Part shown: positions 7,660 to 35,855 of the stretch, piece after piece
Position numbering within the stretch: the stretch's first letter is position 1
Layout of the letters: every line of letters begins with the position of its first letter
Virus record (IMG/VR): IMGVR_UViG_3300027782_006229
Location: 1-64,000 of that record
Source of the DNA: a virus
Strand: one strand, 5' to 3'
DNA: 64,000 bases
Program-made: the position numbers and the translations under genes
The notes under the pieces: generated by a model
Database searches by the model: none
Seen by the model: only the letters and a program-made list of their open reading frames with translations
What the model was told of the DNA's origin: nothing

Positions 7660-7660
7660 G

Positions 7661-16845: not shown

Positions 16846-19074
16846 ATGAGTACATATATAGTCCCAGGTACAAGACTTACCACTTTAACAGCTTTAAGTG
16901 TTCTTACAGATGCTGATTTGTTTTATGTGGTAGACACAACAACAAATACATCTCGTAAAACAACTTATGAATCTCTTACATCAAATGTACTTAGAGATTT
17001 AACTTCATTTTTCTTGAATTCAACTGGAGGTCGAGTTAATGGTCTGGTTACGCTACTATCTGGTGTTTCAGCTACAAATTTCTTCTATACAAGTGGTGAT
17101 GGTTTAGTTGTACCTTATGATAGATCAGACTTTTTATATTTGAGTTCAACTCAGACGGAGATGTCTAAAGCTGCATCACAACAATATGTTATATCTCAGC
17201 TAGCATCTGTTAGTGGTATAACTCAAACCTATTTATTTCAAAATTTTGTAGCTCTTTCTGGGTCTGTATTAACTGCAAATCTTTCAAGTTCAATTGTACC
17301 TACTACATCTAGTCAATATGTTAATTTAAAGTATATTACAGATAATTATGTACCAAAAACAGGTGGTGTGTTTACTGATTTTATTTCAGTACCACAACCA
17401 TCTGTTGGTGATCCAAGTGCAAGGGTTGCAACAGTTGGTTATGTTGAGAGTAGAATTGCTGCACAACCTGGTTCTAGATTGAATAACCTTTCTGCTTTTC
17501 CGATTAATAATCGCGACAACAAGCACAATAATAACGGTAGGGGTAATAGCGGTAATGGTGTTACTTTTATACGAGATAATGATAGTAAAGTAAGATCTTG
17601 TGGTCTATATAGTAACGTCAACTCAGGTGGTTATGGATTTTACCAAACACAACTTTATAGTTTTCCTCAACTGCCTATTGAATTTCAAATTAATAACGGT
17701 ACGGAGTTTGCTACAAAGGTACTCAATACTGGTCAATCTACTTTTATATTATCTAATTTAGGTTATGTATACACTGCAGGTGATAACACTGCAGGTCAAC
17801 TTGGTGTTGGTGGTATAACTAGAAGAAACACCTTTGTTAATATTACTTCTAGTATTACACCATCAACAACCGGTACTCAAATTACTGGATTGTTTATTAG
17901 TCAGGGTAATGACCAAACAACAACTAATAACTCTGTTTATTTATTGAGTGGTGGTCAGTTATGGGCATGGGGATCCAATAAAATAGGGCAACTTGGTGTT
18001 GGATCAACCACAAATGTTGCTGTTCCAGCACTTGTAAATTTAGTGAGCCCAGGTTCATCAATTGTTGGTCAATATTTAACTAAAATTGCAGCGTCTAACT
18101 CAGCTGCGTTAGGCTATGTATTAGCTATAGATAGTAATAAAATAGTGCATGTCGCTGGTTGGAATGCCGCTGGTCAATTAGGATTGAGTGCAGCTATAAA
18201 TGGTACGGGATCAGGTAGACGTACTGGTGCCTTTCCAACAAATACCACAACATTTAAAACATCTCAGTTGTGGACAATCTCTAGTGTTCAAGTTTCACCT
18301 CATCTACAAACTGTTCCATTACCGGTATTAATATCCCCTACAATAACTGCAGATGAAGTTTATACAGCTGGGTCAAATTCATACATACTTACTGGTGGTA
18401 GTGTATTGTCTTGTGGTAGAAATGGTACTGGGGCTTGTGGTCTTGGTAACACAACAAGCGCTCCAGGTATCTTAAGTCCAGCTACTACTAGACCTTATTG
18501 GCAAACAGTTATTAGTGATACATCAGGTGCACCCCTAACAGGTGTAGAATATTTAACTACTAGTGGTGATCCAGCTAATATAGGTATCGTAAGCGTTTGT
18601 GCTTATATATCATCTTTATCAACAATTAAAGTGTGGGGAAGCAACAGCAGTGGGCAGCTTGGTACTGGAAATAACGGAAATCAACTAGTTGCGACAACAC
18701 CATCTAGTGCTCCAACAGGCATTCTCAAAGCTAAAATGGTTGGTCAACAGCATAACACCACATTATTTGTTTTAGATAGTGCTGGTGACATATATGTTAC
18801 AGGTTATGTTGATGGTGGTTTAGATGGTCGTGGAGAAGGTAACATTAAAGTACAAAATACATTCCAGAAAGTAATTCGACCACAAGGTATTAAATATGTT
18901 GACTTCGAAGTGTTTTCATATGGTAATATGTCTCAATTTAAAACTGTATTAGCTCAATCACTTACCAATGAATTATATGCATGGGGTTACAATACATATA
19001 ATCAAGGTGGGTTTATTAATATACCAGCTACTAAAACAATTATCGATGTACCTATCAAGGTAAGTCTATTCTAA
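16846..19074 (+). CDS. RCC1-repeat tail/fibre protein
   Basis: Repeated VYTAGDNTAGQLG / WAWGSNKIGQLG / WGSNSSGQLG motifs. Confidence 0.85.
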   Translation: MSTYIVPGTRLTTLTALSVLTDADLFYVVDTTTNTSRKTTYESLTSNVLRDLTSFFLNSTGGRVNGLVTLLSGVSATNFFYTSGDGLVVPYDRSDFLYLSSTQTEMSKAASQQYVISQLASVSGITQTYLFQNFVALSGSVLTANLSSSIVPTTSSQYVNLKYITDNYVPKTGGVFTDFISVPQPSVGDPSARVATVGYVESRIAAQPGSRLNNLSAFPINNRDNKHNNNGRGNSGNGVTFIRDNDSKVRSCGLYSNVNSGGYGFYQTQLYSFPQLPIEFQINNGTEFATKVLNTGQSTFILSNLGYVYTAGDNTAGQLGVGGITRRNTFVNITSSITPSTTGTQITGLFISQGNDQTTTNNSVYLLSGGQLWAWGSNKIGQLGVGSTTNVAVPALVNLVSPGSSIVGQYLTKIAASNSAALGYVLAIDSNKIVHVAGWNAAGQLGLSAAINGTGSGRRTGAFPTNTTTFKTSQLWTISSVQVSPHLQTVPLPVLISPTITADEVYTAGSNSYILTGGSVLSCGRNGTGACGLGNTTSAPGILSPATTRPYWQTVISDTSGAPLTGVEYLTTSGDPANIGIVSVCAYISSLSTIKVWGSNSSGQLGTGNNGNQLVATTPSSAPTGILKAKMVGQQHNTTLFVLDSAGDIYVTGYVDGGLDGRGEGNIKVQNTFQKVIRPQGIKYVDFEVFSYGNMSQFKTVLAQSLTNELYAWGYNTYNQGGFINIPATKTIIDVPIKVSLF

Positions 19075-20091: not shown

Positions 20092-20124
20092 TAAATATAT
20101 TTATAACAATCAATAAATAATAGT

Positions 20125-20544
20125 ATGAGTAGCTTTACAAAAAAATTCTTCACACTCCTCGAACAAGATGGACAAGAACAAATCCCAACCCCAGATCAAG
20201 AAGCAATGGCTTCAACATTAGATGCTGAAACAGATCCAGCATCTCTTGGAGCTGATATTAATTCCCAAGCTGCAACAGCTGTAGCACAACAGCAACAACA
20301 AATGATTGGTACAGTGCAGTCTTGGATTGCTAAGCTTGATGAGTTTGTTAAGTATCTTAACTCACCAACAGGTGAATCTATTCAGAATACCCTCAAGGAT
20401 GCTTTACCTGATACAATTCTTGATAAAATTCGTACAACTGAAACAAAGAAGATTGCTCGTTCAGCTATGGACCTTGCAGCTCTTTCACAGATTTTCCAAG
20501 GTTACCTAGCAACAGCAAGAGATCCGAAGTACAAAGGAGTATAA
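20125..20544 (+). CDS. Putative capsid-internal protein
   Basis: ATAAATA-N5-ATG; MSSFTKKFFTLLEQ N-terminus. Confidence 0.6.
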   Translation: MSSFTKKFFTLLEQDGQEQIPTPDQEAMASTLDAETDPASLGADINSQAATAVAQQQQQMIGTVQSWIAKLDEFVKYLNSPTGESIQNTLKDALPDTILDKIRTTETKKIARSAMDLAALSQIFQGYLATARDPKYKGV

Positions 20545-20558
20545 TTTATAAATTAACG

Positions 20559-20595
20559 AAAAAAGCGAGTAGATTAGTTTCTACTCGCTTTTTTT
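20559..20595. terminator. Bidirectional intrinsic terminator
   Basis: AAAAAAGCGAGTAGA-TTAGTT-TCTACTCGCTTTTTT between convergent genes. Confidence 0.85.
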
Positions 20596-21614
20596 ATCTC
20601 TGCAAGTTTCACCATACCCATTAATCCGGTAAAACTATTTTCAATAATGAATTCAGGTGTAATTTCATTAAGACTATACTTCATAACAATGTCATTGAAG
20701 TCTTTTAATTTTTTACCATATTTTGCAGGCCAAATAAAAACGGTTTCACTTTTATCAAGTAATTTTTCAGTTTTAACTAATGATGTATTATCAATCCACT
20801 GAGAGTCTAGCACCCAAATACGAGTATAAAATTGAAAACGAGTAAGCTGTTGTTGTTGGGTCTCGGTAAATAGATGTTCTCCTTTCGAAATACCAGCAAC
20901 AGCTAACCCATTTTTAGTAAACATTGCATTAATTGGACCTTCAAACAGAAATATATAGTTAAGATCGTCTTTTACATTACTAATGCCATAAAGAGACTTA
21001 TCGCTCCCCATCTTAGACGTATATTTTGACTTAATATCATTACCACTCTGTATGACCGTTCGAGACTGATAGAAAATAATATCTCCATGTTCATTATAAA
21101 ATGGAATAACCAATCTATTTTTATGTACCTTATCTTTTAATGAAACATACAAAGCTTTGGGTTTGTTGATAGATTTATGAATTCGTCTTTCCTTGATAAG
21201 CTTGAGACATGCTCTAACAACCTCATTATCTTTATGAAAATTTACTTGAGTTTTATCAAATAGATTGATTGAATCAGTAGGCAATGTTGGTGCAACATAT
21301 TCTTTCTTTATTACCGCATCTTTGAAATCGTATACCTTTGAAGTATCGTACTTACTAGCTTCATCTAGAATTTGAGCATATGTAAGCCCTGATATTTTTT
21401 CAATCCACTTAAGTGGTAGTGAACTCCAACCACAATTATGACAGAATATATTATTATTCTTCGGAATGTAAAAACATCTGCGTTTTGAACCTAAAGATTT
21501 ACCTTCACGACAAATAGGACACCCGCATTGATAAGTTTTATTGTATTTGTTGCGTTTAGGCTGATACCCGTACGTATAAAATTTTTCAATGATGTATTCT
21601 TCAGGTAATATCAT
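20574..21614 (-). CDS. gp61: DNA primase, T4 gp61-like
   Basis: CPIC...CHNCG zinc finger, RLVIPFY, FEGPINA TOPRIM, KDFND. Confidence 0.9.
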   Translation of the reverse strand: MILPEEYIIEKFYTYGYQPKRNKYNKTYQCGCPICREGKSLGSKRRCFYIPKNNNIFCHNCGWSSLPLKWIEKISGLTYAQILDEASKYDTSKVYDFKDAVIKKEYVAPTLPTDSINLFDKTQVNFHKDNEVVRACLKLIKERRIHKSINKPKALYVSLKDKVHKNRLVIPFYNEHGDIIFYQSRTVIQSGNDIKSKYTSKMGSDKSLYGISNVKDDLNYIFLFEGPINAMFTKNGLAVAGISKGEHLFTETQQQQLTRFQFYTRIWVLDSQWIDNTSLVKTEKLLDKSETVFIWPAKYGKKLKDFNDIVMKYSLNEITPEFIIENSFTGLMGMVKLAEIKKASRN

Positions 21615-22477
21615 TTTAATAGTTTCACAATATAACTTTCATAGTCGTTACCAAAGCAAAAAATATCGTACCATCTATCTTGCTTCTTCAAAATAGAATC
21701 TAATTTAAGTTCTTCACAATACAACTTAAATTGTTTGAAATCATGATTTTGTGCAATATCTAATTGCTCTTTATACCATTCATGTTCATCTGCATGCATA
21801 GTATACTTGTCTAATCTAAAAAGACTATAGTTTCTTTTAAACTCTTCGCTTTGCTCAGCTGTAGTTGCATATTCACCATCAAAATATTTTTTAATTTTTT
21901 TCTTACCCATACCAGTTACACCAGGTACGTTATCAGACTTATCACCTCTAAAACATTTTTCAACGAGATAATGCTCTTTTGTAACTTTCATTATATCTAA
22001 AAAGTTATCAGCGGTAATTTCACACTTTTTAATAGGATCATATACAGTAACGTTAGCATTAATGCATTGACATAGGTCTTTATCAACAGTAACTATAACT
22101 TTCTTACCAGGGAGCTCTTTGCAAAGGTAAGCCATGCAGTCATCTGCTTCAAGACGTAACGGGAAGAAGTTTTTTACACCAAGACAGCTTAGTAAATGCT
22201 TAATATGCTCGTTTTTAGAGTGAACTTGAGCACTATATTCACGATCTCGATTACCTTTATAGTCAGCGAACATATCTTTACGTTCGTTTACACCATAATC
22301 CTTCTTTTCATCCCAGCAGCAGTAAATTTTATCAGGTTTAAACTTTTCTACATAGGTTTTAACTGAGTTAAGTACCATATATACATGGAGATAAGAGTCT
22401 TCACCTTTAACTTGGTTGTTAGCTACCCAGAAGCAACGATGCACAAGGTTATTTCCGTCTATAATAAGGGTCTTCAT
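21611..22477 (-). CDS. rnh: 5'-3' exonuclease / T4 RNase H
   Basis: IIDGNN, YKGNR, EADD, DKDL.Q, GDKSDNVPGV. Confidence 0.9.
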   Translation of the reverse strand: MKTLIIDGNNLVHRCFWVANNQVKGEDSYLHVYMVLNSVKTYVEKFKPDKIYCCWDEKKDYGVNERKDMFADYKGNRDREYSAQVHSKNEHIKHLLSCLGVKNFFPLRLEADDCMAYLCKELPGKKVIVTVDKDLCQCINANVTVYDPIKKCEITADNFLDIMKVTKEHYLVEKCFRGDKSDNVPGVTGMGKKKIKKYFDGEYATTAEQSEEFKRNYSLFRLDKYTMHADEHEWYKEQLDIAQNHDFKQFKLYCEELKLDSILKKQDRWYDIFCFGNDYESYIVKLLK

Positions 22478-22483
22478 AACCTT

Positions 22484-22500
22484 ATTATAGACGTTTTCCT
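22484..22500 (-). promoter_or_regulatory. AGGAAA-N5-TATAAT promoter
   Basis: TTGATT...AGGAAA ACGTC TATAAT, 6 nt before ATG. Confidence 0.7.
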
Positions 22501-22507
22501 TATAAAA

Positions 22508-23743
22508 TCAAGCTAAAAGAGCTTGAACAGGTTTACCTTTATCTGCAACCTTGAATGGTCTGCCTTCTGGTGAGATTACAATTTGATCTACTGGTAATCC
22601 TGCTGCAGCTGCAATAGTAGCATTGAAGTCAGATGGGCTAACAATGTTTTCAACTGATTTCATACCTTTTTCATCAGATTTACCATATGCTTGACCACCT
22701 TTGATACCGGCACCAATGAGTACTCCAGAGAAAGCACCTGGATGGTGGTCTCTACCGTTATTAATGTTAATATTTGGTGTTCTACCAAAGTCTGTTGCAA
22801 TTACAATAAGGGTTTTATCATAAAGCCCAGATGCTTTAAGGTCTTCAATGAGAGCATTAACAGCTTGATCAAGAATCTTAAGTTTACCTTCAAGAGATTC
22901 AAAGTTATTAACGTGAGTATCCCAACCACCATCAGTAACTTCAATAAACTTACAATTACCTTGTTCAATTAAACGTTTTGCTAAGCAAACACCTTGACCA
23001 AAACGATTATTACCGTATTTGTCTCTGGTTACTTGATCTACCTTAGAAAGATCGAAGACATCAAGCTCATTTGAATTAAGAAGACGAATTGTTTGGTCAT
23101 AAAACTCAGCATATGACTTTTGAGCTGGGTTAACAATCTTATTAGCATCTTTTTCAAGCTTATCTAAGATTTCAATTCTCTTAGAAAACTCTGCTGCATT
23201 TTTAAGCTTAGTATTATCAAGACCTCTCATTGGATCTGCTATTGGAATAGGAGAATACTTTTTAGGCATCCAACCAGAACCAGGATGATCAGCACCACCG
23301 CCGATTAAAACGTTTTGAGGTACAACTTTTGGTTTATTATCCTCTGTATAATGACACATCCATGCTCCCATATTAGGGTGAACGATTGTACCAATCTTCT
23401 TGAATGATGTTTTTTGTAAATACTGTGCTGCAGCGTGATCACCTGTTGTAACCATCATAGAACGAACAACAGCCATCTTATCACCATGTTTTGCCATGAG
23501 AGGAAGGTGTTCTGAAATCTGATAACCAGCATTAGTGTTAATTGGATTGAATACACCCTTTACTTCTGCATGTGCTTTTGGATCAAATGTATCCAAATGG
23601 CTCATACCACCATTCATAAAGAGGTAAATGATATGTTCTGCTTTTTTACCTGCAGGAGCAGCTGCTACATGTGGTAGAACGGTTACACCTAAGCCTGCTG
23701 ATGCAAGATTAAGCACGAAATTACGTCTTGTTAAGTTATTCAT
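22508..23743 (-). CDS. DUF1501 family protein with Tat signal
   Basis: TRRNF Tat motif; IYLFMNGGMSHLDTFDPK, GGWDTH, TDFGRTP, GRDHHP. Confidence 0.9.
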   Translation of the reverse strand: MNNLTRRNFVLNLASAGLGVTVLPHVAAAPAGKKAEHIIYLFMNGGMSHLDTFDPKAHAEVKGVFNPINTNAGYQISEHLPLMAKHGDKMAVVRSMMVTTGDHAAAQYLQKTSFKKIGTIVHPNMGAWMCHYTEDNKPKVVPQNVLIGGGADHPGSGWMPKKYSPIPIADPMRGLDNTKLKNAAEFSKRIEILDKLEKDANKIVNPAQKSYAEFYDQTIRLLNSNELDVFDLSKVDQVTRDKYGNNRFGQGVCLAKRLIEQGNCKFIEVTDGGWDTHVNNFESLEGKLKILDQAVNALIEDLKASGLYDKTLIVIATDFGRTPNININNGRDHHPGAFSGVLIGAGIKGGQAYGKSDEKGMKSVENIVSPSDFNATIAAAAGLPVDQIVISPEGRPFKVADKGKPVQALLA

Positions 23744-23751
23744 GGCTTTTA

Positions 23752-25539
23752 TTATTTATTGAATTTGAACTCCGAACTATTAACTAGTGCCCAGATGATG
23801 TCATCATCCTGAACACCAACAAACTTACTTTTTTCATCAATTGTTGGTTTTCTAACCAATATAGACTTAAAAATAACATCAATTGTATCAGCTGGTGATT
23901 TGCCTGTAAGTGTTTTTGCAAGATTTGTGTCTTTATTGATTGCAACTTCAGCTAATTGACCATTCATAAAAGAAATAACTTGTGTAACTGAACCTTCCTT
24001 TGAAGATGTATCAATTAATTCTCTATCACTACGACCAAGTTGTTCAAGAATCGTATTAACTGGATTGTTATCATTAACTTCAGACGCTCTCACTAGAGGG
24101 TAGTTACGATATTTTGGAGCTGTTTCATATTTTGAACGAATCACCTTTTGATATTCTTCATTTTTAGCTTTTAATTTATCAATTGCCAAATCTTCGATAC
24201 TATATCTCATTATTTTAACATATTCATCTTGGAAAGTTAACTTAAATGTTTCAGGCTTAGCAATAGCGATAGACATAACTGAATCCCACAATTGCTCTGC
24301 TGTTAAACGTTGTTTGACTGGTCCAATGAACACAAATTTATCTGTATTAGTATACATGCCGTCATAGAGTTCTCTTTGAAACAATGTTGTATTGTAAAGA
24401 ACATACAGGAATTGCTTAGTATCATAGTTAACGTCTACCATAATCTTAGCAAGAGTGTTCATAAGCTCACCATTAAGCTCTTTTTCATCGTGAATATTAT
24501 CATAGTTATCCATTATATGTTTACCAAACACCCATTTCCAGTAACGATTAGCAATGTTTTTAGTGAATGTTGGATGATTTGGGTTAACTAACCAGCTAAT
24601 AACATCCTTTCTCATATCAACCTTATTGTTAATTTCAGTCTTACCAGAAAGGACTGCAGGTATAACAACATCGCCTGGTTTTGCATCTTTATAATTGTAA
24701 TCATGAGGTAGTTTCAATACACGCTTTTCATCTACTTCAATATTAGATCTCATAGCATTAACAAAGTTGTTAATAGTATTGTTTAACCCACGGTTCTTTA
24801 TAGGATCAGCTTTAATTATAGCATCAATTTCTTCTCTCAAAGCTTTCTGACGAGCTGCTACCGCTGGATCTTTATCTTTACCACGACCTCTAAGTTCTAT
24901 CTGGGTAAACATAGCAGCCATCTTATAAAACTGCATTTGGGTGAAGTCTTGGAAAGGATCATCATGGCATTGTGCACAACCAATATCGGTTCCCATGAAT
25001 ACTTTACCTGTACCAATAAGGTTATCTAATGGCATTCCTAAATCACGATAGAAGTATCCTGTTGCTGGGTTATCATAATATGAACCTGTTGATGTTAACA
25101 GATCTGTAACAAACTTTGAATAAGATTTGTTAGCTGTGATTGAGTCTTTAACATAATCAATGTAAGGACCACCAGAAAAATTGTTAGTGGTGTTAATTCT
25201 ATCACGCAATCTTAATGATTCAGCCCAGAAGTTAAACATATGTGATGTATAACCTGGATGGTTCATAAGAAACTGTATTAAACCTCGTCTCTTATTAGGG
25301 TCTGTTGCTTTATTAAACAAGTCATACTCTTCATAGGTTGGATTTCTACCAATTATTGTAAGATACGCTCGTCGTAAAAATTTATCATCATCAATTTTAC
25401 CAAGTGGTATAACATTAGCTGCTACGTATTGTTTTTGTAACACAGAATCAATATTACTACTGTATGTGTTAAGTTGATCTAAAGTTGCACCAAATGATAG
25501 AGCGCAAACACTTACTAATATAGCTATAAGTTTTTTCAT
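23752..25539 (-). CDS. DUF1549/DUF1553 (PSCyt2/PSD1) planctomycete-type cytochrome-domain protein
   Basis: Signal peptide; FLRRAYLTIIGRNPT, FMGTDIGCAQCHD (CxxCH), NRYWKWVFG, RLTAEQLWDS, DIIWALVNSSEFKFN. Confidence 0.9.
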   Translation of the reverse strand: MKKLIAILVSVCALSFGATLDQLNTYSSNIDSVLQKQYVAANVIPLGKIDDDKFLRRAYLTIIGRNPTYEEYDLFNKATDPNKRRGLIQFLMNHPGYTSHMFNFWAESLRLRDRINTTNNFSGGPYIDYVKDSITANKSYSKFVTDLLTSTGSYYDNPATGYFYRDLGMPLDNLIGTGKVFMGTDIGCAQCHDDPFQDFTQMQFYKMAAMFTQIELRGRGKDKDPAVAARQKALREEIDAIIKADPIKNRGLNNTINNFVNAMRSNIEVDEKRVLKLPHDYNYKDAKPGDVVIPAVLSGKTEINNKVDMRKDVISWLVNPNHPTFTKNIANRYWKWVFGKHIMDNYDNIHDEKELNGELMNTLAKIMVDVNYDTKQFLYVLYNTTLFQRELYDGMYTNTDKFVFIGPVKQRLTAEQLWDSVMSIAIAKPETFKLTFQDEYVKIMRYSIEDLAIDKLKAKNEEYQKVIRSKYETAPKYRNYPLVRASEVNDNNPVNTILEQLGRSDRELIDTSSKEGSVTQVISFMNGQLAEVAINKDTNLAKTLTGKSPADTIDVIFKSILVRKPTIDEKSKFVGVQDDDIIWALVNSSEFKFNK

Positions 25540-25551
25540 AGTAGTCTTTTA

Positions 25552-25845
25552 TTATTTAATAACTTTATTTTTATTATAAAGATATTGTGATTTTAAAAGA
25601 CTATAAATGTTGTTAGGTAACTTTTCAACTTCTTCGAGTATTTTATTTTCAACACCGAAGAAAAACCTATCTTTAGGTACTTCTCTGTTTATATTTTTAG
25701 GAATAGAGATGAAATAAAAATTTTTATCATCCTTTTCCATGTAAACGAACATTTCACCTACATAATGCCCATTCTGAACAGCATATGGTATGCTTTTTTT
25801 AGGTTCAGGCTCTCGTTTAAAAATCATCCCCACCATATTTGTCAT
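25552..25845 (-). CDS. Hypothetical protein
   Basis: ORF within the replication operon. Confidence 0.6.
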   Translation of the reverse strand: MTNMVGMIFKREPEPKKSIPYAVQNGHYVGEMFVYMEKDDKNFYFISIPKNINREVPKDRFFFGVENKILEEVEKLPNNIYSLLKSQYLYNKNKVIK

Positions 25846-26188
25846 TAAATTTACCCATTTGAATTGCGAAAAACTTCATTAGTAATGAATGTAATGCATC
25901 TGCATGTATGGGTGTATTACATTTTGTTAAAGCTATAGGTACACCTTCACTATTATACCCTAATAACATAAAACAATCAAGAAATTCACTTATTGTACAA
26001 ACAAGAGCATTATTAATATCTTCAACCCCTTTGTTTTTCTTTACTTCTTTCAGTTTGTTAGAAAGAATTTCATTTATTAGATTTTTAATATCTATATTCG
26101 ATTGCACCTTCTCAGTCTCATCTTGAGAAGGTGCTTTGGGAGTGATTTTTTTCCTTTTATATTTTTTAGGTTCATCACTCATAAACAT
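25817..26188 (-). CDS. Hypothetical protein
   Basis: ORF within the operon; TAAATA upstream. Confidence 0.6.
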   Translation of the reverse strand: MFMSDEPKKYKRKKITPKAPSQDETEKVQSNIDIKNLINEILSNKLKEVKKNKGVEDINNALVCTISEFLDCFMLLGYNSEGVPIALTKCNTPIHADALHSLLMKFFAIQMGKFNDKYGGDDF

Positions 26189-26190
26189 AT

Positions 26191-26544
26191 TTAATCCAGT
26201 TTATAAAACGGATTAGTTGTGTCATTTTGTGATATACCTTTTTCAAGCAAATATTCCACAATAACCTCAATAGAATGGGTTTTGATAAAGTAGTTACGAG
26301 GAAACCTCACCCCACCATCATCAATTTCAAACATAATTTCATTAAGTTTTTCTTTATTTTGATAACATGTAATAAACACAGATGTAACACCTGGATCCAC
26401 AAGAATAGTCCACTTACGTGGATCAGAAATCCCATATTTCTGGAATATTCTAAGAGTAATAAAACCACTATCTTTTAAACGCTTAATAAAATATCCTGAT
26501 GTTTTAAGCTTATTTTTGTCTTGGTATGTTAGTATGTGGTCCAT
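26191..26544 (-). CDS. Hypothetical protein
   Basis: ORF within the operon. Confidence 0.65.
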   Translation of the reverse strand: MDHILTYQDKNKLKTSGYFIKRLKDSGFITLRIFQKYGISDPRKWTILVDPGVTSVFITCYQNKEKLNEIMFEIDDGGVRFPRNYFIKTHSIEVIVEYLLEKGISQNDTTNPFYKLD

Positions 26545-26545
26545 G

Positions 26546-27256
26546 TTATTGTGTGAGTGATGATAAAATATATCTTAATTTAAGCGGCCCTTGATCAATA
26601 TCAAATATAAGTACCCCATACTTATTATTGATCGATACACTTACATTATCTGAATTAATAAGTTTAAAGTTATCAAAGTTAATAGGTATATTTTTAAGTT
26701 CATTACCAACTATATTTTTACCTACTTGCAATTGAAATGAATCTGTATTATGTCTAGCTTTATCTGTAAGCTCACACTTTACCATACCATCTTCAAGATA
26801 AAAATAAATTTTATTAGTTTCGGTAGTAAAAGTAGAAGCTTTATTAATTTTACTAAAATCCTCTTTTACCAACTCAAAAGTAAAGTCGGTATCAAAGGAC
26901 ATAATCTTTTCAGGTTTAACTGAAGGGGGTGCAATGAAATCATCTTCAAAAAGGTGATATTTAAATTTAATTTCTGGGGATTTATACTCCAGGTTATTTT
27001 GATTAACCTGGAGTTCAATTTCATCACTATTAATACAGTCTAAAACTCGATTAAGTTTTTTTAAGTCCGGTATACATAAGGATCTTTCGGATTCATTCGA
27101 ATGGTTTAGAATCGCGTAAAGGATCAACGTATTGTCCGTCGACGTTACTATCGACGATATTTTCTCCTTCTCCACTTTCACTATACACTGATCGTTTATC
27201 TTCGCTAGAGACTCTAGAAACTTTTCGATTTGTTGCTTTTTTAACTTTAACTTCAT
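26546..27256 (-). CDS. gp45: Sliding clamp, T4 gp45-like
   Basis: 236 aa; CIPDLKKL, IKFKY, NFKLI patterns; located near SSB and helicase. Confidence 0.7.
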   Translation of the reverse strand: MKLKLKKQQIEKFLESLAKINDQCIVKVEKEKISSIVTSTDNTLILYAILNHSNESERSLCIPDLKKLNRVLDCINSDEIELQVNQNNLEYKSPEIKFKYHLFEDDFIAPPSVKPEKIMSFDTDFTFELVKEDFSKINKASTFTTETNKIYFYLEDGMVKCELTDKARHNTDSFQLQVGKNIVGNELKNIPINFDNFKLINSDNVSVSINNKYGVLIFDIDQGPLKLRYILSSLTQ

Positions 27257-27614
27257 ATTGTGTGAATAATTCTACTAACTTACCAAGATTGCTTTCAATA
27301 CCTTTTAATATAGAAACAATATCTGAATTATCAACTAGTTGAATAGGTCTAGATTCTTGTGGGTGTTGAATAACATGTGGTAAATTAACAGTATTTGGTG
27401 GTAGTTGAGGTGGTGGAGCAAATTGAGGTTGTGGTGGTGGAGGTGGCTGAGCATTTCTCAACGTACTCTCAAACAACTGCTTAACCTGCTCACTTTGAGG
27501 TCTCAAATGAGCTGATTGACCAACTAAATTTTGATCAATTTTTCTAGCCTCACCATAAACGCTACCCATTAAATTGAGTAGCATTTTTTGTTGTTCAATT
27601 GCGTCTGGGTTCAT
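27093..27614 (-). CDS. Pro/Gln-rich hypothetical protein (3' end overlaps the clamp gene)
   Basis: Starts at the SSB stop (ATGA overlap). Confidence 0.6.
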   Translation of the reverse strand: MNPDAIEQQKMLLNLMGSVYGEARKIDQNLVGQSAHLRPQSEQVKQLFESTLRNAQPPPPPQPQFAPPPQLPPNTVNLPHVIQHPQESRPIQLVDNSDIVSILKGIESNLGKLVELFTQYEVKVKKATNRKVSRVSSEDKRSVYSESGEGENIVDSNVDGQYVDPLRDSKPFE

Positions 27615-28462
27615 AGATCTTTAAGAAGTTCATCGATATCAGCATCTTCAATACTAGAAGAATTAACTGATGGTTGCTTAACCTTATTACTAAGCTCTGC
27701 AATCGCTTCATCTGCTTCAGGTAATGAAGTTGTAGTTTCACGGTCTTCAGCGGTCTTACAATAAAAATGCTCATCAAGCATTTGCTTAAGCTCATCTTCA
27801 GTCTTAACCCGGAATACATTTTCAAGGTCATGTGTAGACTCAAGAACTTCATCTTGCTTGGATTCACTCAAACCAAGATCTTTACCCACAGAAGTAAATC
27901 GTGAAGAAGTATATACTGGATAGTCACCTTGCTTTTCAACCTTAATCTTGAAGTTAACACCTTCTTTAGATAGATCAAAAACTCGCATACCGAACTCTTC
28001 AGCTTCATCACCACTAATAGCGCTATTGATAATATTACCAAGCTGTTTACCATAACGAAGAATTTTTACTTTGCCGTTATTTTCTGGCTTAGACGGATCA
28101 TCAATTACATAAACATTAGTAAGCCATTGTTCGGCACGACGAATAGTTTTCATTTTCTCTTTTTCTTCTTCAGTACCGGTACGAAGAACTTTATATCTTT
28201 CTTCAGCAATAGGATCACGTTCACCGAATGTAGTAGGTGAAATAGCACTTACATACTTACCAGTAGCAAGAGAATTCCAACCATGCGTAAAATGATGAAA
28301 AAGAGACTGCTTTGGATTTTTTGTATTAGGTAGAAGCCTTACTGTATAGGTATTACCAGGTTTAAGTTGCATAATATCTTGCAAACTTCCTTGCTTATTA
28401 TCTTGCGAAGTTAAAGCTTCTTTAATGGAATCGAACATTGACGTTAGGTTATATTTACTCAT
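27611..28462 (-). CDS. gp32: Single-stranded DNA-binding protein, T4 gp32-like
   Basis: VRLLP, NVYVIDDP..PENNGKVKI.RYGK, acidic C-terminal tail DIDELLKDL. Confidence 0.9.
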   Translation of the reverse strand: MSKYNLTSMFDSIKEALTSQDNKQGSLQDIMQLKPGNTYTVRLLPNTKNPKQSLFHHFTHGWNSLATGKYVSAISPTTFGERDPIAEERYKVLRTGTEEEKEKMKTIRRAEQWLTNVYVIDDPSKPENNGKVKILRYGKQLGNIINSAISGDEAEEFGMRVFDLSKEGVNFKIKVEKQGDYPVYTSSRFTSVGKDLGLSESKQDEVLESTHDLENVFRVKTEDELKQMLDEHFYCKTAEDRETTTSLPEADEAIAELSNKVKQPSVNSSSIEDADIDELLKDL

Positions 28463-28473
28463 AGTATATCTTA

Positions 28474-29163
28474 TTATAAATTAGGTTTTGATAAATTCAA
28501 CAGTTTTTTTTCAATTATTTTTAATCCTTCTCTAATTACTATTTTAAGTCTTTGAGATGCAATAAATCTATTTCGGGTTTTGTAAAATAGATCGTAAAAA
28601 TCTTTACAATAAAAGTCTAATAACTCTGGTTCTACACTCTTAATTTGTTTTTCCACATCTAACCCATGTAATATATAGAAATTAATTAAATGGGATTTGA
28701 GGTTAATTAAAAATAACGGTACGGGTGGTTGTGATGTCTTGTACTGTGATAGAGTTATACTATTTTGCAAACACTGATTGTATATATTTTTAAGAGCATC
28801 TTTACAATCTTGAATAGTTAGCTCATTATCTGGGTCTTGAGTTTCTTTTTTTCTCATATATTGAGAATAAGCAATAATTGCCTTTCTCATATGATAAAAA
28901 CTCAAATCAAAATATTCTTCTTTTGAATAAATTTCATATGGTGCCCAGAAAAAGTCATTACATGAAATTGTCTGGTTTGTATTAAAAAATACACCGAGTT
29001 TTTTTAGACTGATATAAATTTCATCTGATATATCAGTAAAATTTTGTCTTAATCTGAATGGTTTGTTTTTAGCTTTTTTGGATGCAATTAAGAATGCATT
29101 ATAAATTCTCTTTTCATCTTCTGTGATATCATTTTTTGAGAGAATTGATGTATTTTGTGACAT
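28474..29163 (-). CDS. Hypothetical protein (position of the T4 gp59 helicase loader)
   Basis: Synteny next to gp32 only. Confidence 0.45.
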   Translation of the reverse strand: MSQNTSILSKNDITEDEKRIYNAFLIASKKAKNKPFRLRQNFTDISDEIYISLKKLGVFFNTNQTISCNDFFWAPYEIYSKEEYFDLSFYHMRKAIIAYSQYMRKKETQDPDNELTIQDCKDALKNIYNQCLQNSITLSQYKTSQPPVPLFLINLKSHLINFYILHGLDVEKQIKSVEPELLDFYCKDFYDLFYKTRNRFIASQRLKIVIREGLKIIEKKLLNLSKPNL

Positions 29164-29416
29164 ATTTTGACTTTGTAATTGTATTATCGTAATCTATAAA
29201 CATTTTAACTATTTCAAAGTCAGAATCAACGTCTAAAATTCTCTTTAATATGTTTTTCAATTTTATATCTTTAAGAATCAATAGAAATACGTTTTGAAAA
29301 GAAAGTTTTTTACCAACTAGAAGTGTACAAAATGTACAAAAAGATAATAAAGAGTGCTCTGTTTCATCTTCAACCAAAAAGTGGGCTGGATTATAGTTTT
29401 TGTTTGTAATTAACAT
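29129..29416 (-). CDS. Hypothetical protein
   Basis: ORF within the operon. Confidence 0.55.
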   Translation of the reverse strand: MLITNKNYNPAHFLVEDETEHSLLSFCTFCTLLVGKKLSFQNVFLLILKDIKLKNILKRILDVDSDFEIVKMFIDYDNTITKSKYVTKYINSLKK

Positions 29417-29736
29417 GGCTTGAAATGTTTGGTTAGACCTAAAAATTCTTTAGTGAATGAGAAAATATGGCCTGAGCCTTTATTAAACACCTTTTTGTTA
29501 AAATCATTGATGTTAACATCAGAAATTTCACTCTTATACACAACAACCTCTTTGTTTTTAGTGTTAACAACTAGTAAAACATCGCAGTTAAACTTCTTTT
29601 GGCATAATTTAATAAATTCAGGTGTTACAACACCAGTATCAAAAAAACTTACAAACATTTTACCGTTGAGTTTTAGTTGAAAAAACTGTGTTGTTTTGAA
29701 TTTTTCTTTAAGGTAATCTATAAAGCTTTGGTTCAC
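29410..29736 (-). CDS. Hypothetical protein, possibly a DHHA1-like fragment
   Basis: DVLLVVN...KGSGH pattern; TAAATA-N5-GTG start. Confidence 0.4.
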   Translation of the reverse strand: MNQSFIDYLKEKFKTTQFFQLKLNGKMFVSFFDTGVVTPEFIKLCQKKFNCDVLLVVNTKNKEVVVYKSEISDVNINDFNKKVFNKGSGHIFSFTKEFLGLTKHFKPC

Positions 29737-29764
29737 CTCATTATTTAGAGGTTACTCCAAATAA

Positions 29765-31084
29765 TCAACTCGCAAACATACTCAATGAACTTAACATTTC
29801 ACTTTCCATACCACCTGTTTGGCCATCTGCTTCTGAAATAGTTAAAGTTGAATAATCTATTTTCATTGATGTAGTTGTTCCACGTGCTCCAAATCGGTTT
29901 TTCATCATACCCATTTTAATAATCTCTAGTTCTCTATCTTCATCATTCTGGAAGATAGAAACAATAACATCTGCAGTAGCTGCAAGACCGATAGACTCAC
30001 TAATAGTATTAAGATCAGGGTTAGAAACATCAAATCCTGAACGATTAAGCTGGGTTGCACTAATAACAGGACAGCTAAAGATGTATGACATAGCACGAAC
30101 CTGCTCAGTTACATGTTTAATACGTTCATAACTGTTATTACCCATTGGAGAATGTAGTAGATTCAAGTAATCTAACACAATAGCATCAATTTTAATACCT
30201 TTATCTTCAATTTTTTTAATGAAAGCTTGAATCTGCCTTGGAGTCATTGTTGCAGGAGGAAATTCTTTGATAAGAATCTTACCACCTGGCTTATTTTTCT
30301 TAATATCTTCAATGGCTGCTTTAAGAGATCCAGTCTCTAAATGAAGAGTCTTCATTGGAATCTTACTTACATTAGTACAAATACGTTTCGCATACAATAT
30401 TTCAGGCATTTCTAACGTAATTAACAGTACAGTTTTATTCTGATCTGCTATATTAGCTGCAATATTGCCGAGAAAAATAGATTTACCAATATTAGTCTCA
30501 CCTGCAAAGACATATAAAGCTCGACCATCTCTCATAAAGCCCCCACCAATATAATCATCCAACCAAGGCCATGTACTTGGAATAGTTTCCTGTACATCCT
30601 GGATTTGCTTGATTACATTATCAATATCTGCATACAAGTCTAATCCAACATCAGTCTGCAAAGATATATTACAGCTTTTTTCAAATTTATCAAGAATTGC
30701 AGAGGTATCAGCCTTATTACTTGAAATATCAGCAGCAACCTCAAGTAAAGTACTAAAAACAGCCTTCTCTTTTAAAAATTGCTCGGTATTTTCATACAAT
30801 TCATCTTCGTTGAAGCTTTTATCAAGGCTTTGAAAGCTGGTAAGCACGTTTTTAAATGATGATCTACTTACTTCATCACCACAATACTGCTTTATTTCCG
30901 TTAAATTAGGTAATTCATTGCGAACATCATAAAATCCTTTGATAATCTCAAATATTTTTTTATTATCTCTGTTTTTAAAATAATCTGATTTGGTGTAATC
31001 AATAGTAGTTGCAAGATATCGTTTATCTGTACAGCATTTATACAAAAAGATATTCTCAAAAAAGTCCAAGTCTAATTTTAACAT
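29765..31084 (-). CDS. gp41: Replicative DnaB-like helicase, T4 gp41-like
   Basis: AGETNIGKS, ITLEM, IKEFP, VLDYL, SATQLNR, SESIGLAATAD, KNRFG. Confidence 0.95.
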   Translation of the reverse strand: MLKLDLDFFENIFLYKCCTDKRYLATTIDYTKSDYFKNRDNKKIFEIIKGFYDVRNELPNLTEIKQYCGDEVSRSSFKNVLTSFQSLDKSFNEDELYENTEQFLKEKAVFSTLLEVAADISSNKADTSAILDKFEKSCNISLQTDVGLDLYADIDNVIKQIQDVQETIPSTWPWLDDYIGGGFMRDGRALYVFAGETNIGKSIFLGNIAANIADQNKTVLLITLEMPEILYAKRICTNVSKIPMKTLHLETGSLKAAIEDIKKNKPGGKILIKEFPPATMTPRQIQAFIKKIEDKGIKIDAIVLDYLNLLHSPMGNNSYERIKHVTEQVRAMSYIFSCPVISATQLNRSGFDVSNPDLNTISESIGLAATADVIVSIFQNDEDRELEIIKMGMMKNRFGARGTTTSMKIDYSTLTISEADGQTGGMESEMLSSLSMFAS

Positions 31085-31162
31085 TACATTATAATAGTAG
31101 CTAGATATAGTATATCAAGATGGTAATTGTGGTATATTTTTTAAACAGTATTAAATAACCAT

Positions 31163-32419
31163 ATGAATAGACGTGAATTTATACGAGTTGGTGCTGCTGG
31201 TTCGATGTTATTGCCTGATTTTTTAAGAGCTCAATCACAAAACAAAGCAAAAGCAACATCAGTTGTACAGATTTATTTGCCAGGTGGTATGAGTCATCAA
31301 GATTCATGGGATTACAAGCCATTTGCACCATCTGAATATAGAGGACCATTTGATCCAATTAAAACAAAAATTGACGATGTGACTTTTGGGTCACTTCTTA
31401 AAGAAACTGCTAAGATTAGTGATAATTTAACTGTTATCCGTTCAATGACACATGGCGAAGCTGCTCATGAGCGTGGAACACATAATATGTTGACTGGTTA
31501 TAAGCCATCACCAGCACTAAGCTACCCATCTTTTGGTAGTGTTATTAGTCATGAATTAGGAAATCGCAACAATTTACCAGCATACGTTCTTGTTCCAAAC
31601 CAATTTGCACCAGAAAATGGTACAGGTTATCTATCAACAAAATATGGAGCATTTTCTCTAGGTTCTAACCCAGAAGATCCAGGATTTGCTGTTAAAGATC
31701 TCAATTCACCTGCAGGTATTAATGATAAAGCATTTGATAGACGTCGTAACCTACTTGGTGCTGTTGATGAACACTTTAAAACCCGTGAATCTAATGTAGA
31801 TGCTGTTAAAGCAATGGATTCGTTTTATAATGATGCATATGCAATGATGTCGTCAACACAAGCACGTGAAGCGTTTGAGTTATCAAAAGAACCAGATGTG
31901 GTAAAAGATGCATATGGTCGTAATGCAGCTGGGCAACGGCTGTTATTATCTCGTAGATTGATTGAAGCTGGTGTAAGAATGGTTACAGTAACGTATGGTT
32001 CATGGGATCACCACTCAAATCTTAAAGGATCATATGAGCAAAACATGATTAACTTTGATAGAGCCTTTGCTGCATTCATTACAGACCTTAAACAACGTGG
32101 TTTACTTAGCTCTACACTGGTAATGGTAACATCTGAATTTGGTAGAACACCAAAAATTAACGCAACTAATGGTAGAGATCATTGGCCAAGAGTATTTTCA
32201 ACAGTACTAGCAGGTGGTGGTGTCAAATCCGGATATGCTTATGGTACATCCGATGCTTTAGCTTCAGAACCAGATAATAATCCAGTAACTCCTGGTCAAC
32301 TAGCTGCTACAATGTATAGTTTAATAGGTGTTTCACCAAGAAAGAAGCTAATGACACCAGATTTAAGACCGATTGAAGTCGTTTATAACGATTCACCAAT
32401 TGAAGATATCTTAGTTTGA
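31163..32419 (+). CDS. Second DUF1501 family protein with Tat signal
   Basis: MNRREFI; IYLPGGMSHQDSWDYK, GSWDHH, SEFGRTPKIN, GRDHWP; TAAATA-N5-ATG. Confidence 0.9.
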   Translation: MNRREFIRVGAAGSMLLPDFLRAQSQNKAKATSVVQIYLPGGMSHQDSWDYKPFAPSEYRGPFDPIKTKIDDVTFGSLLKETAKISDNLTVIRSMTHGEAAHERGTHNMLTGYKPSPALSYPSFGSVISHELGNRNNLPAYVLVPNQFAPENGTGYLSTKYGAFSLGSNPEDPGFAVKDLNSPAGINDKAFDRRRNLLGAVDEHFKTRESNVDAVKAMDSFYNDAYAMMSSTQAREAFELSKEPDVVKDAYGRNAAGQRLLLSRRLIEAGVRMVTVTYGSWDHHSNLKGSYEQNMINFDRAFAAFITDLKQRGLLSSTLVMVTSEFGRTPKINATNGRDHWPRVFSTVLAGGGVKSGYAYGTSDALASEPDNNPVTPGQLAATMYSLIGVSPRKKLMTPDLRPIEVVYNDSPIEDILV

Positions 32420-33055
32420 CCACTTATTCAAGAACCATTCTTGACCATTATTCCACTCATCTGTAAATTCTTTCAATCCAGGTGACGCATGAGTGATAGT
32501 TATATCACCTACACCGATTTTAAAGCCAGCTTTATGGCAAGCCATTGAAAAGTCTAGGTCATAAAAGTGAAACCCAGCAGGATTTGTTTCATCAAACCTT
32601 ACTTTTTGTAATACTTCTGTTTTAACAGCCATAAACACACCATCAATTAGTATAACACGATCAGGATAACTACCAAAACTGGTCATAAACTTGGTACCTG
32701 TAGGTTCACATAGATGAGCTACAGCTCCTCTATGATGTTTTCTATTACTCATTAGATGCCATAATGCTGGTTTCTGTAATTTTGCTTCTCTTGTTCCTGC
32801 TAGCCCTACAACATCAAAGTTTGTTCCAAGATTATAGAGTTGCCTTTCAATTGCTTCAGGTGCTTCTATAATAACATCATCATGTACGAATACAATCCAG
32901 TCTGATAATATAAAATCGTCAATAGCATCATTATAGACAATAGGTAAAGGGTCTGTATTGTTTGCTGCCCAAGATACATCATATATATCTTTTGTGCTGC
33001 GATATAGTAAAGTTGATTTTGGATCACCTTTGGTTGCTGATACGAATTTTATCAT
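32411..33055 (-). CDS. Glycosyltransferase-like protein (GT2-related)
   Basis: YNDAI, VFVHDDV, VVGLAG, IDGVFMA, FHFYDLDFS. Confidence 0.8.
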   Translation of the reverse strand: MIKFVSATKGDPKSTLLYRSTKDIYDVSWAANNTDPLPIVYNDAIDDFILSDWIVFVHDDVIIEAPEAIERQLYNLGTNFDVVGLAGTREAKLQKPALWHLMSNRKHHRGAVAHLCEPTGTKFMTSFGSYPDRVILIDGVFMAVKTEVLQKVRFDETNPAGFHFYDLDFSMACHKAGFKIGVGDITITHASPGLKEFTDEWNNGQEWFLNKWSN

Positions 33056-33753: not shown

Positions 33754-33801
33754 AATATATTAAATATAGACGTTAATACACAAAAAACAATAAATAATTT
33801 T

Positions 33802-35582: not shown

Positions 35583-35584
35583 AT

Positions 35585-35854
35585 TTAAATTGTAGCTTCG
35601 TCTAAGAGATTTTCAAGATATACAATACCTTTCATCCCAGAAAAACGTGAAACTTCTTTTTCGTTTTTAACAAATACACAAGTCGGTACAGCATTAATGT
35701 TGTAATTTTTAACTAATTGTTCATGTTCTTCGATGTTGATGTGCTCAACATCGCAATTATGATGTTTTTGTTTAAACTGCTCAATGATTGGTTTAAACAT
35801 TTTACAAGGTCCACAATAACTAGCAGTAAAGTATAACAATTTAATTTCATTCAT
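35585..35854 (-). CDS. Thioredoxin
   Basis: YCGPCK active site, AVPT. Confidence 0.9.
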   Translation of the reverse strand: MNEIKLLYFTASYCGPCKMFKPIIEQFKQKHHNCDVEHINIEEHEQLVKNYNINAVPTCVFVKNEKEVSRFSGMKGIVYLENLLDEATI

Positions 35855-35855
35855 A

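Follow-up and report, generated by a model that had tools for sequence, protein, structure and literature searches.

What is a gene pair regarded as a hallmark of planctomycetes and their relatives doing among the DNA replication genes of a phage? The question is raised by a 64,000-nucleotide stretch of viral DNA (hereafter, the window), positions 1 to 64,000 of IMG/VR record IMGVR_UViG_3300027782_006229, a contig of 84,841 bp rated 40% complete. A sequence-only reading of the window had pointed to two adjacent open reading frames (ORFs), one encoding a protein with the domains PSCyt2 (DUF1549) and PSD1 (DUF1553) and the other a DUF1501 protein, and had proposed that they form an intact copy of the module known from Planctomycetes-Verrucomicrobia-Chlamydiae (PVC) bacteria, carried by a lytic phage and acting in the host periplasm. 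Our analysis bears out the identity and integrity of the pair and qualifies what had been said of its host and biochemistry. What is new here is a phage-resident lineage of the known PVC DUF1501/PSCyt2-PSD1 module. We think it somewhat probable that the pair is a PVC operon which the phage has kept for making, late in infection, a periplasmic metal-dependent ester hydrolase and its helper.

Both ORFs lie on the minus strand with an 8-nt gap between them, in the order PSCyt2-PSD1 then DUF1501 (Table 1), and all three Pfam families are matched far above their cut-offs. In the 595-aa partner protein (PF07583 and PF07587), PSCyt2 covers residues 29–215 (E 1.1e-34, 120.7 bits, cut-off 29.8) and PSD1 lies C-terminal to it at residues 310–573 (E 7.6e-25, 88.2 bits, cut-off 28.5). 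The DUF1501 protein, which we call DUF1501a, matches PF07394 over the whole profile, 1–390 of 390 (E 3.1e-97, 326.7 bits, cut-off 27). The partner begins with the hydrophobic Sec-type leader MKKLIAILVSVCALSFGA and carries CAQCH at residues 188–192, at the end of the PSCyt2 domain (24964–24978 in the window, checked by translation); this motif is kept in 59 of 59 aligned phage and cellular homologues, and Met169 is likewise invariant. The translation of DUF1501a contains GGMSHLDTFD, WDTH, FGRTP and GRDH, and R6 and R7 of its twin-arginine (Tat) leader are conserved in at least 90% of 70 DUF1501 sequences; both leaders were assigned by eye and by conservation. The signal peptide, haem-type motif, twin arginines and metal-site motifs listed by the sequence-only reading are therefore all present in intact genes. 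The entire 84,841-bp record holds a single PSCyt2 gene. PSCyt1 (PF07635), which Pfam names 'Planctomycete cytochrome C', gave no match on the phage partner even at E up to 10. PHROGs, NCBIfam and PADLOC contain no family for the PSCyt2-PSD1 protein, for DUF1501a or for a second DUF1501 copy of the same phage (DUF1501b), and none of the three is matched by a PADLOC defence or counter-defence hidden Markov model (HMM).

The pair sits, as had been noted, amid replication genes: a co-directional string identified with Pfam and PHROGs runs DnaB, gp32, sliding clamp, three small ORFs, PSCyt2-PSD1, DUF1501a, 5'-3' exonuclease and primase. We compared it with 25 IMG/VR loci from several metagenomes, namely those encoding close relatives of DUF1501a, and found the same flanking genes on the covered sides in seven (L001, L002, L003, L006, L007, L008 and, in part, L024). 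Contigs from another study (run X3) cover positions 21000–22870 and 22886–27000 with identities of about 95%; they run across the junctions exonuclease/DUF1501a, DUF1501a/PSCyt2-PSD1 and PSCyt2-PSD1/orf97, and the last of these is also bridged, without a difference, by a 632-nt contig from run X2. Because the junctions recur in independent loci, in contigs from other studies and in complete genomes, a chimeric assembly is excluded. The codons are AT-rich and phage-like, as had been claimed: GC content at third codon positions is 0.211 and 0.232 for the pair and 0.174 for DUF1501b, at a phage mean of 0.212 (standard deviation 0.039; 68 genes of at least 150 aa), and the phage genes have an overall GC of 33–38%, compared with 0.58–0.62 for the genes of five cellular homologues. 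These are intact, resident phage genes, ameliorated to phage composition, and not contamination.

Complete genomes are available for two relatives, G006 (184,542 bp) and G007 (224,703 bp), both with direct terminal repeats and a completeness rating of 100%. Their capsid genes are of the T4 gp23 type (E 5e-91 and 7e-93), and the number of DUF1501 genes is exactly two in either genome. From the sizes, terminal repeats and gp23 of these genomes we conclude that the window belongs to a freshwater T4-like phage with a genome of about 185–225 kb. A tyrosine integrase is found in none of the three relatives rated at least 90% complete (two of them complete), so 'lytic' is a reasonable description of this T4-like phage, whose own record is 40% complete.

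Pairwise ratios of nonsynonymous to synonymous divergence (dN/dS) against relatives are 0.04–0.19 for DUF1501a and 0.06–0.12 for DUF1501b; for the partner they are 0.05–0.16 in the four of seven comparisons with estimable synonymous divergence (dS), the other three being saturated. These values indicate strong purifying selection on the phage-borne genes. The module also appears to move between phages. Relative to L002 it is 99% and 92% identical (dS 0.21 and 0.34), whereas the gp32 and exonuclease flanks are 69–71% identical (dS 1.3 and 2.4), and a module dS so far below that of its flanks indicates a recent exchange between related phages. Within the virus-only lineage described below, such comparisons indicate occasional exchange of the module as a cassette. 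Its conservation does not exceed that of its flanks everywhere, since relative to L003 the module is 92% and 88% identical and the flanks 88–95%.

Relatives place the module at three or more genome positions. The genes are clustered in the order DUF1501b, about 1 kb, partner, DUF1501a in seven of the 25 loci (L004, L005, L009, L010, L012, L013 and L025), and in nine loci the module lies directly upstream of a tail-sheath-stabiliser homologue (phrog_227). The spacer of about 1 kb in L005 holds a 272-aa ORF (7385–8203) and a 108-aa ORF between DUF1501b and PSCyt2-PSD1. The larger of these has a weak match to FMN_red, the NADPH-dependent FMN reductase family (E 6.5e-5, 23 bits against a cut-off of 24), and might be a redox accessory or merely a neighbour.

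To place the pair among cellular genes, we scanned one genome per prokaryote species by alignment to DUF1501a and kept the best 80 of at least 597 relatives: 39 from Verrucomicrobiota, 34 from Planctomycetota, two from Acidobacteriota, one each from Omnitrophota and Myxococcota, and three others. Among the matches listed, the top cellular identity to DUF1501a is 49% (a Fuerstiella metagenome-assembled genome, MAG). In 54 of these best 80 loci the same strand carries a PSCyt2-PSD1 gene whose end lies no more than 400 nt upstream of the DUF1501 gene; six of the remaining 26 are too short to judge, and 20 lack an upstream PSCyt2-PSD1 gene by that criterion. The phage pair thus has the families, adjacency, orientation and gene order of the PVC module with which it had been identified. 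The closest cellular PSCyt2-PSD1 homologues are 30–37% identical over nearly the full length, and four of four cellular partners tested contain PSCyt2 and PSD1 without PSCyt1, so the PSCyt1-less architecture of the phage exists in cells.

A 114-row DUF1501 tree unites DUF1501a and all its viral and metagenome relatives in one 26-row clade (support 100 by the Shimodaira-Hasegawa-like approximate likelihood ratio test, SH-aLRT), which sits in a polytomy with Planctomycetota and Verrucomicrobiota clades. In the partner tree the virus/metagenome clade (25 rows, support 100) has clades of Planctomycetota (10 rows) and Verrucomicrobiota (15 rows) as its neighbours. The phage sequences therefore form virus-only clades nested among PVC pairs with the same gene order. 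Given that the two trees are congruent and the gene order is common, we infer that the operon was captured as a unit, long ago, from a bacterium of the Planctomycetota/Verrucomicrobiota type. A wider IMG/VR scan returned 408 pattern matches, 343 of which encode DUF1501 relatives. When 57 more viral loci were added (FastTree, 171 rows), the viral sequences fell into three virus-only groups: one of 55 rows (42 viral and 13 metagenome proteins; support 99) that holds the window's DUF1501a together with L023 and one copy from L025, two very different phage contigs; one of 28 rows (support 99); and the DUF1501b group. Three such groups point to at least three captures and to a DUF1501a lineage that is old within phages; identity within this lineage falls to about 40%.

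DUF1501b, found when the whole record was searched, scores 364.3 bits with Pfam. It shares about 32% identity with DUF1501a, belongs to a separate subfamily and has no adjoining PSCyt2/PSD1 gene in the window's phage. Its closest named relatives are Verrucomicrobiaceae/Prosthecobacter proteins (59–61% identity), and it is 61–63% identical to proteins in three Prosthecobacter genomes as against 55–58% in two Planctomycetota genomes. A 51-row tree groups the 24 rows of phage DUF1501b in one clade (support 99) and makes Verrucomicrobiaceae its sister (SH-aLRT 93, unstarred), with Planctomycetota next. A first tree had placed DUF1501b next to Planctomycetota; this placement was rejected once Verrucomicrobiaceae proteins were added, and it can be put down to sampling, because the 80 genome loci had been picked by likeness to DUF1501a. 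By its phylogenetic position, DUF1501b is a second, separately captured subfamily. Its cellular settings differ. In the Planctomycetota locus L106 a gene of this type heads an intact four-gene cluster (DUF1501 / PPC / Big_2-PSCyt2-PSD1 / PSCyt1-WD40), of which the PPC and PSCyt2-PSD1 members were also confirmed in L103; the phage record contains no homologue of PPC or PSCyt1-WD40. In two Prosthecobacter genomes (L194, 4596–15766, and L195) the gene stands without a partner within a conserved block of BamB, a peptidyl-prolyl isomerase (PPIase), an S11 DD-carboxypeptidase, a 400-aa protein, DUF1501, a prenyltransferase-like protein and UbiE. The 400-aa protein has a zinc ribbon and a transmembrane anchor, and no Pfam match.

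The sequence-only reading had also proposed a PVC host. This is plausible, since both captures come from PVC lineages and DUF1501b is nearest to freshwater Verrucomicrobiaceae, and the host is probably a PVC bacterium, with Verrucomicrobiota somewhat likelier than Planctomycetota. We would give Verrucomicrobiota about an even chance, and Planctomycetota and all other groups, equally, a distinctly lower one. The DUF1501a pair, however, falls in an old clade made up of viral sequences, with only 49% identity to its best match in cells, so that the bacterium which donated it need not be the one now infected.

What might the DUF1501 protein do? An AlphaFold2 (AF2) model built from 70 sequences has a predicted local distance difference test score (pLDDT) of 91.3 and a predicted template-modelling score (pTM) of 0.88. 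The best matches found by Foldseek in the PDB are S1 sulfatases, LtaS and alkaline phosphatase (E 6e-8 to 1e-5, TM-score about 0.4); LtaP appears in the same list, and a profile search lists YejM/PbgA. With VIA-align the highest Z values are those of ENPP6 (20.9), PafA (20.5), ENPP7 (20.5) and Xac NPP (20.2), followed by choline sulfatase (18.9), and the alignments with the nucleotide pyrophosphatase/phosphodiesterases (NPP) and PafA span 242–280 residues at a root-mean-square deviation of 3.0–4.1 and 10–14% identity. Judged by its modelled fold, DUF1501a is an enzyme domain of the alkaline-phosphatase (AP) superfamily; the Z values are close, and the preference for NPP/PafA over sulfatase is accordingly weak. 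Sequence searches of solved structures gave weak C-terminal matches to sulfatase, LtaS and YejM. The hydrolase named by the sequence-only reading owes its support to the fold match.

The conserved residues are consistent with a metal site. Across the 70 DUF1501 sequences D54, K56, H103, D275, F319, G320, R321, P323 and H333 are invariant, position 318 is always Glu or Asp, and H277 (69/70) and D332 (66/70) are nearly invariant; in all, 21 columns are invariant, among them D54, K56, H103, D275, R321 and H333, and all are present in both phage copies. The Asp/His-rich set D54, D275, H277, E/D318, D332 and H333 resembles the two-metal sites of AP and NPP enzymes. In the HMM alignment the DUF1501 segment TEFGR lies opposite the 'SDHG' strand of sulfatases, from which it would follow that the acidic ligand is kept and that the His/Asn ligand of sulfatases is replaced by Phe319 (70/70). 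Enzymes of this superfamily carry their nucleophile where the helix that follows the second core strand begins. The corresponding residues of DUF1501a, placed from the DSSP string of the model and not from superposition, are 96–103, MMVTTGDH; the formylglycine motif C/S-x-P-x-R is absent there, and no Cys or Ser is conserved at this position among the 70 sequences.

The partner resembles no solved structure. Its AF2 model (59 sequences; pLDDT 90.6, pTM 0.91) is all-alpha, and the best PDB hit by Foldseek, at E 0.64, is not significant. Among 48,161 chains compared by VIA-align, a phycobilisome linker scored highest, with Z 5.6, below what that tool counts as meaningful for helical proteins. 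A cytochrome fold is absent from the results of both tools, no cytochrome Pfam family matched at E up to 10, and a sequence search of solved structures returned nothing. In the ESM Atlas the best values were 0.76–0.77 (PSCyt3 and PSD2 clusters), under the tool's lead level. For the redox role that had been proposed there is the invariant CxxCH, but these searches matched no cytochrome family or fold; haem binding at CAQCH is possible in view of its conservation. A comparable two-gene logic is seen in DUF1800-DUF1501 pairs of Proteobacteria such as Caulobacter and of the PVC genomes searched, where in four of four loci examined a mostly uncharacterised partner of about 420–570 aa precedes, on the same strand, a DUF1501 relative of about 410 aa. 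Profile-profile comparison of the two kinds of partner gave no significant match (hhalign of PSCyt2-PSD1 against DUF1800, probability 1.3% over 39 columns, with only four DUF1800 sequences).

When would the genes be expressed? The late promoter of T4 is TATAAATA. By analogy with it, the NTAAATA boxes upstream of the pair and of DUF1501b (Table 1) may be late-type promoters. In the 84.8-kb record, ATAAATA stands 8–25 nt before a start codon in 16 of its 42 copies, TTAAATA in 6 of 41 and CTAAATA in 6 of 26, compared with 1–5% for six control heptamers and 1.2% expected by area, and the genes so preceded include tail genes. Thus the late box that the sequence-only reading had seen holds as ATAAATA and TTAAATA variants of a class enriched before starts and not in canonical form: there is no TATAAATA within 20105–36551, and the window has 12 copies against 13.5 expected. 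In relatives, the box before the partner gene is TATAAATA in L013 and ATAAATA in L012, L018 and L019, even where the upstream gene differs. The 13-mer TAAATAATAAAAG has exactly two copies, at 25546–25558 and 23746–23758, one before each gene of the pair and each containing the box found there. The copy before DUF1501a overlaps conserved C-terminal codons of the upstream gene (...FKFNK-stop), so coding constraint may explain part of it. Contigs from lake metatranscriptome X8 (five within the partner gene and one across the exonuclease/DUF1501a junction) and from a second study, X15 (two within the partner gene), match without differences and are a weak hint of expression.

We therefore picture the pair as follows. 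Both proteins would be made late in infection from the NTAAATA late-type promoters. The PSCyt2-PSD1 helper would leave the cytoplasm through Sec in an unfolded state, and haem c may be attached to its invariant CAQCH; DUF1501 would pass through Tat already folded and with its metals bound. Once in the periplasm of the host, DUF1501 would work as a metal-dependent enzyme of the alkaline-phosphatase superfamily, an ester hydrolase or transferase, with the all-helical partner as its dedicated substrate-binding, activating or redox subunit. Organic phosphate mono- or diesters would be cleaved, and the phosphate would be used in the synthesis of the large phage genome. We offer this substrate class and this purpose tentatively, on account of the likeness to NPP/PafA, the two-metal-type ligand set, the absence of a formylglycine motif and the parallels with known phosphatases. 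Such parallels are the Tat-exported phosphatases PhoD and PhoX and the pho-regulon auxiliary genes of phages.

Several points weigh against this picture. No Thr or Ser nucleophile is conserved at the position where the superfamily carries one (Thr99 in 33 and Thr100 in 29 of 70 sequences), the invariant residue there being H103, and the Pfam scores for Sulfatase (PF00884; 20.4 bits, cut-off 25) and Phosphodiest (PF01663; 17.7 bits, cut-off 23) both fall short. Late-type promoters suit nutrient supply no better than they suit lysis or egress, the contigs from RNA libraries may stem from carried-over DNA, and in the two Prosthecobacter genomes the gene of the DUF1501b type lies amid envelope-biogenesis genes. 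The origin is also less sharp than one would wish: the clade of the DUF1501a pair joins a polytomy, which bears on the host, and with the best 80 of at least 597 loci retained, closer cellular relatives may have been missed. The function of both families is called unknown in PMC3542564 and PMC5615132, and the latter describes PSCyt genes in PVC bacteria as often near sulfatases and combined with carbohydrate-binding modules, which suggests glycans rather than phosphate as substrates.

While it is possible that the late periplasmic pair supplies phosphate, it could instead cleave or transfer a phosphate- or sulfate-linked group on a polymer of the host envelope (a peptidoglycan-linked glycan, a lipid head group, capsule or holdfast) in the service of lysis and egress, receptor destruction or superinfection exclusion. 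We regard such remodelling as nearly as likely as the organophosphate reading, and still unlikely when taken by itself. Late-type boxes on all three genes are shared with tail genes, and the module adjoins the tail-sheath-stabiliser gene in the nine loci mentioned above. Both proteins have predicted export leaders, and the superfamily members found by Foldseek (LtaS/LtaP) and by profile search (YejM/PbgA) are envelope lipid enzymes. The company of BamB, PPIase and the S11 DD-carboxypeptidase in Prosthecobacter fits as well, although a neighbourhood from two genomes of one genus is thin evidence. Against remodelling, no lysis genes were identified beside the module, and the DUF1501 protein has no membrane anchor of the LtaS or EptA kind.

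It is tempting to speculate that the pair is the minimal self-sufficient form of a new class of periplasmic enzyme, used late by T4-like phages of PVC bacteria against an envelope or periplasmic polymer of the host. Such an enzyme would join a haem-bearing helical subunit to an alkaline-phosphatase-fold subunit in which the invariant His103 takes the place of the Ser, Thr or formylglycine nucleophile. We consider this bolder proposal doubtful; if it were true, it would amount to a new kind of egress, exclusion or scavenging device of phages and would assign a function to hundreds of paralogues in Planctomycetes and Verrucomicrobia.

A sulfatase-like enzyme is improbable; its substrates would be sulfated glycans or organosulfates, and it would provide sulfur or carbon or break down slime. 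S1 sulfatases top the Foldseek list, the HMM alignments match the 'SDHG' strand, and PSCyt genes adjoin sulfatase genes in freshwater Verrucomicrobia MAGs according to PMC5615132. However, the nucleophile position lacks the formylglycine motif, the His/Asn ligand is Phe319 throughout, the Pfam score stays below its cut-off and VIA-align ranks NPP/PafA higher.

More improbable again is a redox module, with PSCyt2-PSD1 as a genuine c-type cytochrome that exchanges electrons with DUF1501, the latter being an oxidoreductase and not a hydrolase. The universal CAQCH, together with the invariant Met169 as a possible sixth ligand, would suit such a protein, and Sec export suits the attachment of haem c. 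Yet the cytochrome searches came back empty at the level of both family and fold, PSCyt1 is absent from the phage protein and from its nearest cellular relatives, and the fold of DUF1501 is that of a hydrolase or transferase. Electron transport is what Kamneva et al. 2012 (PMC3542564) proposed for the cellular module. Lastly, it is hardly credible that the genes are an artefact of a chimeric contig or of bacterial contamination, or passengers in decay and without function: the record is a partial contig from an uncultured metagenome, but the junctions are common to independent contigs and studies, complete genomes with direct terminal repeats carry the genes, and these show low dN/dS, no stops, every invariant residue and a phage-like composition.

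How does the phage version compare with what is known? Kamneva et al. 2012 (PMC3542564) and He et al. 2017 (PMC5615132) present the PVC module as a 'conserved genetic module' of Planctomycetes, Verrucomicrobia and Lentisphaerae. The phage pair agrees with the module of Kamneva et al. in its Pfam families, in the order PSCyt2-PSD1 then DUF1501, in the Tat motif on DUF1501 and in the signal peptide and CxxCH of the partner, and phage DUF1501b is 52–58% identical to the enzyme gene of their four-gene cluster. Unlike the PVC module, it is phage-encoded; it consists of one pair and one solo enzyme, where the PVC genomes searched have 12–27 strong DUF1501 matches each; it lacks PSCyt1, carbohydrate-binding and Big_2 domains; and its genes, with a GC of 33–38% instead of 58–62%, stand behind late-type boxes and in a virus-only clade. 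As for other members of the superfamily, the NPP/PafA phosphatases are the best structural match to DUF1501a, which has Asp/His-rich conserved sites, but identity is 10–14% and Phosphodiest is below cut-off. Type I (S1) sulfatases have the C-terminal metal-site strand in common with DUF1501a, which lacks C/S-x-P-x-R and has Phe for His/Asn. Perhaps the nearest analogues in phages are pstS and phoA of cyanophages, host-derived genes for exported or periplasmic nutrient proteins that selection maintains where T4-like phages live in nutrient-poor waters. For pstS and phoA both function and regulation by the host are known; the present pair has neither and is apparently expressed late.

The sequence-only reading had supposed that the module is undescribed as a phage system, and our full-text literature search turned up no paper reporting a DUF1501/PSCyt2-PSD1 module in phages. 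A tblastn search of both proteins against 50,697 GenBank phage records found no match (the collection may omit the window's own record). The possibility that the module is already common and characterised in phages holds in its first half, with DUF1501 encoded by the 343 IMG/VR stretches found in the wider scan, and fails in its second. Automatic annotation does exist: BFVD has one 'DUF1501 domain-containing protein', 14% identical, from an uncultured Caudovirales phage. Among the papers listed, the only phage paper mentioning DUF1501 does so for a weak CDD match of a 61-aa Pseudomonas phage protein.

The families concerned, DUF1501 and PSCyt/PSD, are among the largest orphan families of Planctomycetes and Verrucomicrobia; in Rhodopirellula baltica each domain occurs 41 times, according to PMC2754498. 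One pair kept under strong selection in an old virus-only lineage implies that one particular paralogue is useful by itself during infection. Biochemistry, co-folding and expression work would gain from the phage pair as a compact version, highly conserved and present in a single copy. For phage ecology it represents a widespread class of exported auxiliary gene with no counterpart among the 50,697 deposited phage genomes searched, and as a marker it may link a group of abundant freshwater T4-like phages with hosts from the PVC bacteria.

Table 1. Genes, promoter-like boxes and hairpins of the module and its surroundings, in window coordinates.
Feature	Position	Strand	Description
PSCyt2 (DUF1549) + PSD1 (DUF1553) protein	23752–25539	minus	595-aa ORF, Sec-type leader
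DUF1501 copy a (DUF1501a)	22508–23743	minus	411-aa ORF, Tat leader TRRNFV
DUF1501 copy b (DUF1501b)	31163–32419	plus	418-aa ORF, Tat leader NRREFI
TTAAATA late-promoter-like box	25553–25559	minus	20 nt upstream of the PSCyt2-PSD1 start
ATAAATA box	23753–23759	minus	16 nt upstream of the DUF1501a start; overlaps last codons and stop of the upstream gene
TTAAATA box	31151–31157	plus	12 nt upstream of the DUF1501b start
Weak terminator-like hairpin	22508–22526	minus	7 pairs (3 G-C) and T-run, at the 3' end of DUF1501a; consensus scan only, no evidence of function
Strong terminator-like hairpin	20559–20594	minus	15 pairs; closes the DnaB...primase string

The weak hairpin at the end of DUF1501a is followed, ahead of the exonuclease gene, by a sigma-70-like hexamer pair (consensus scan only; no evidence of function). 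Within the replication string, the sliding-clamp ORF (26546–27256) and a Pro-rich 173-aa ORF (27093–27614) overlap by 164 nt in different frames, an arrangement kept in relatives. In L008 (1917–3890) the DnaB match is in two pieces, of 358 aa and 57 aa, about 730 nt apart, which may reflect an intein, an intron or a homing-endonuclease insertion. A 742-aa protein with RCC1-like repeats (E 9e-36; 16846–19074), with an ATAAATA box 16 nt before its start, is possibly a tail-fibre or receptor-binding protein.

Other parts of the window hold genes for SbcC-like and helicase proteins. A glutamine-amidotransferase-like protein, QueC and GTP cyclohydrolase I (33052–33753, 34845–35582 and 61409–62020) together amount to components of a 7-deazaguanine (preQ0-type) pathway, which may serve DNA modification; the QueC match is to 7-cyano-7-deazaguanine synthase and lies slightly below the equivalog cut-off. 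A 243-aa ORF (35856–36587) contains a DNA-binding domain of the I-TevI type (E 2e-9) and probably encodes a homing endonuclease; it lies beside a thioredoxin-like ORF, and its other neighbour, a 375-aa ORF (36608–37735), looks RecA/UvsX-like by eye. A PhoH-like protein (E 1e-48) is encoded at 62807–63583 and a DUF6267 protein (E 2e-77) at 50165–51448. ARAGORN finds 23 tRNA genes on the minus strand in an array at 53455–60400, and GC rises to as much as 0.45 at 58–60 kb.

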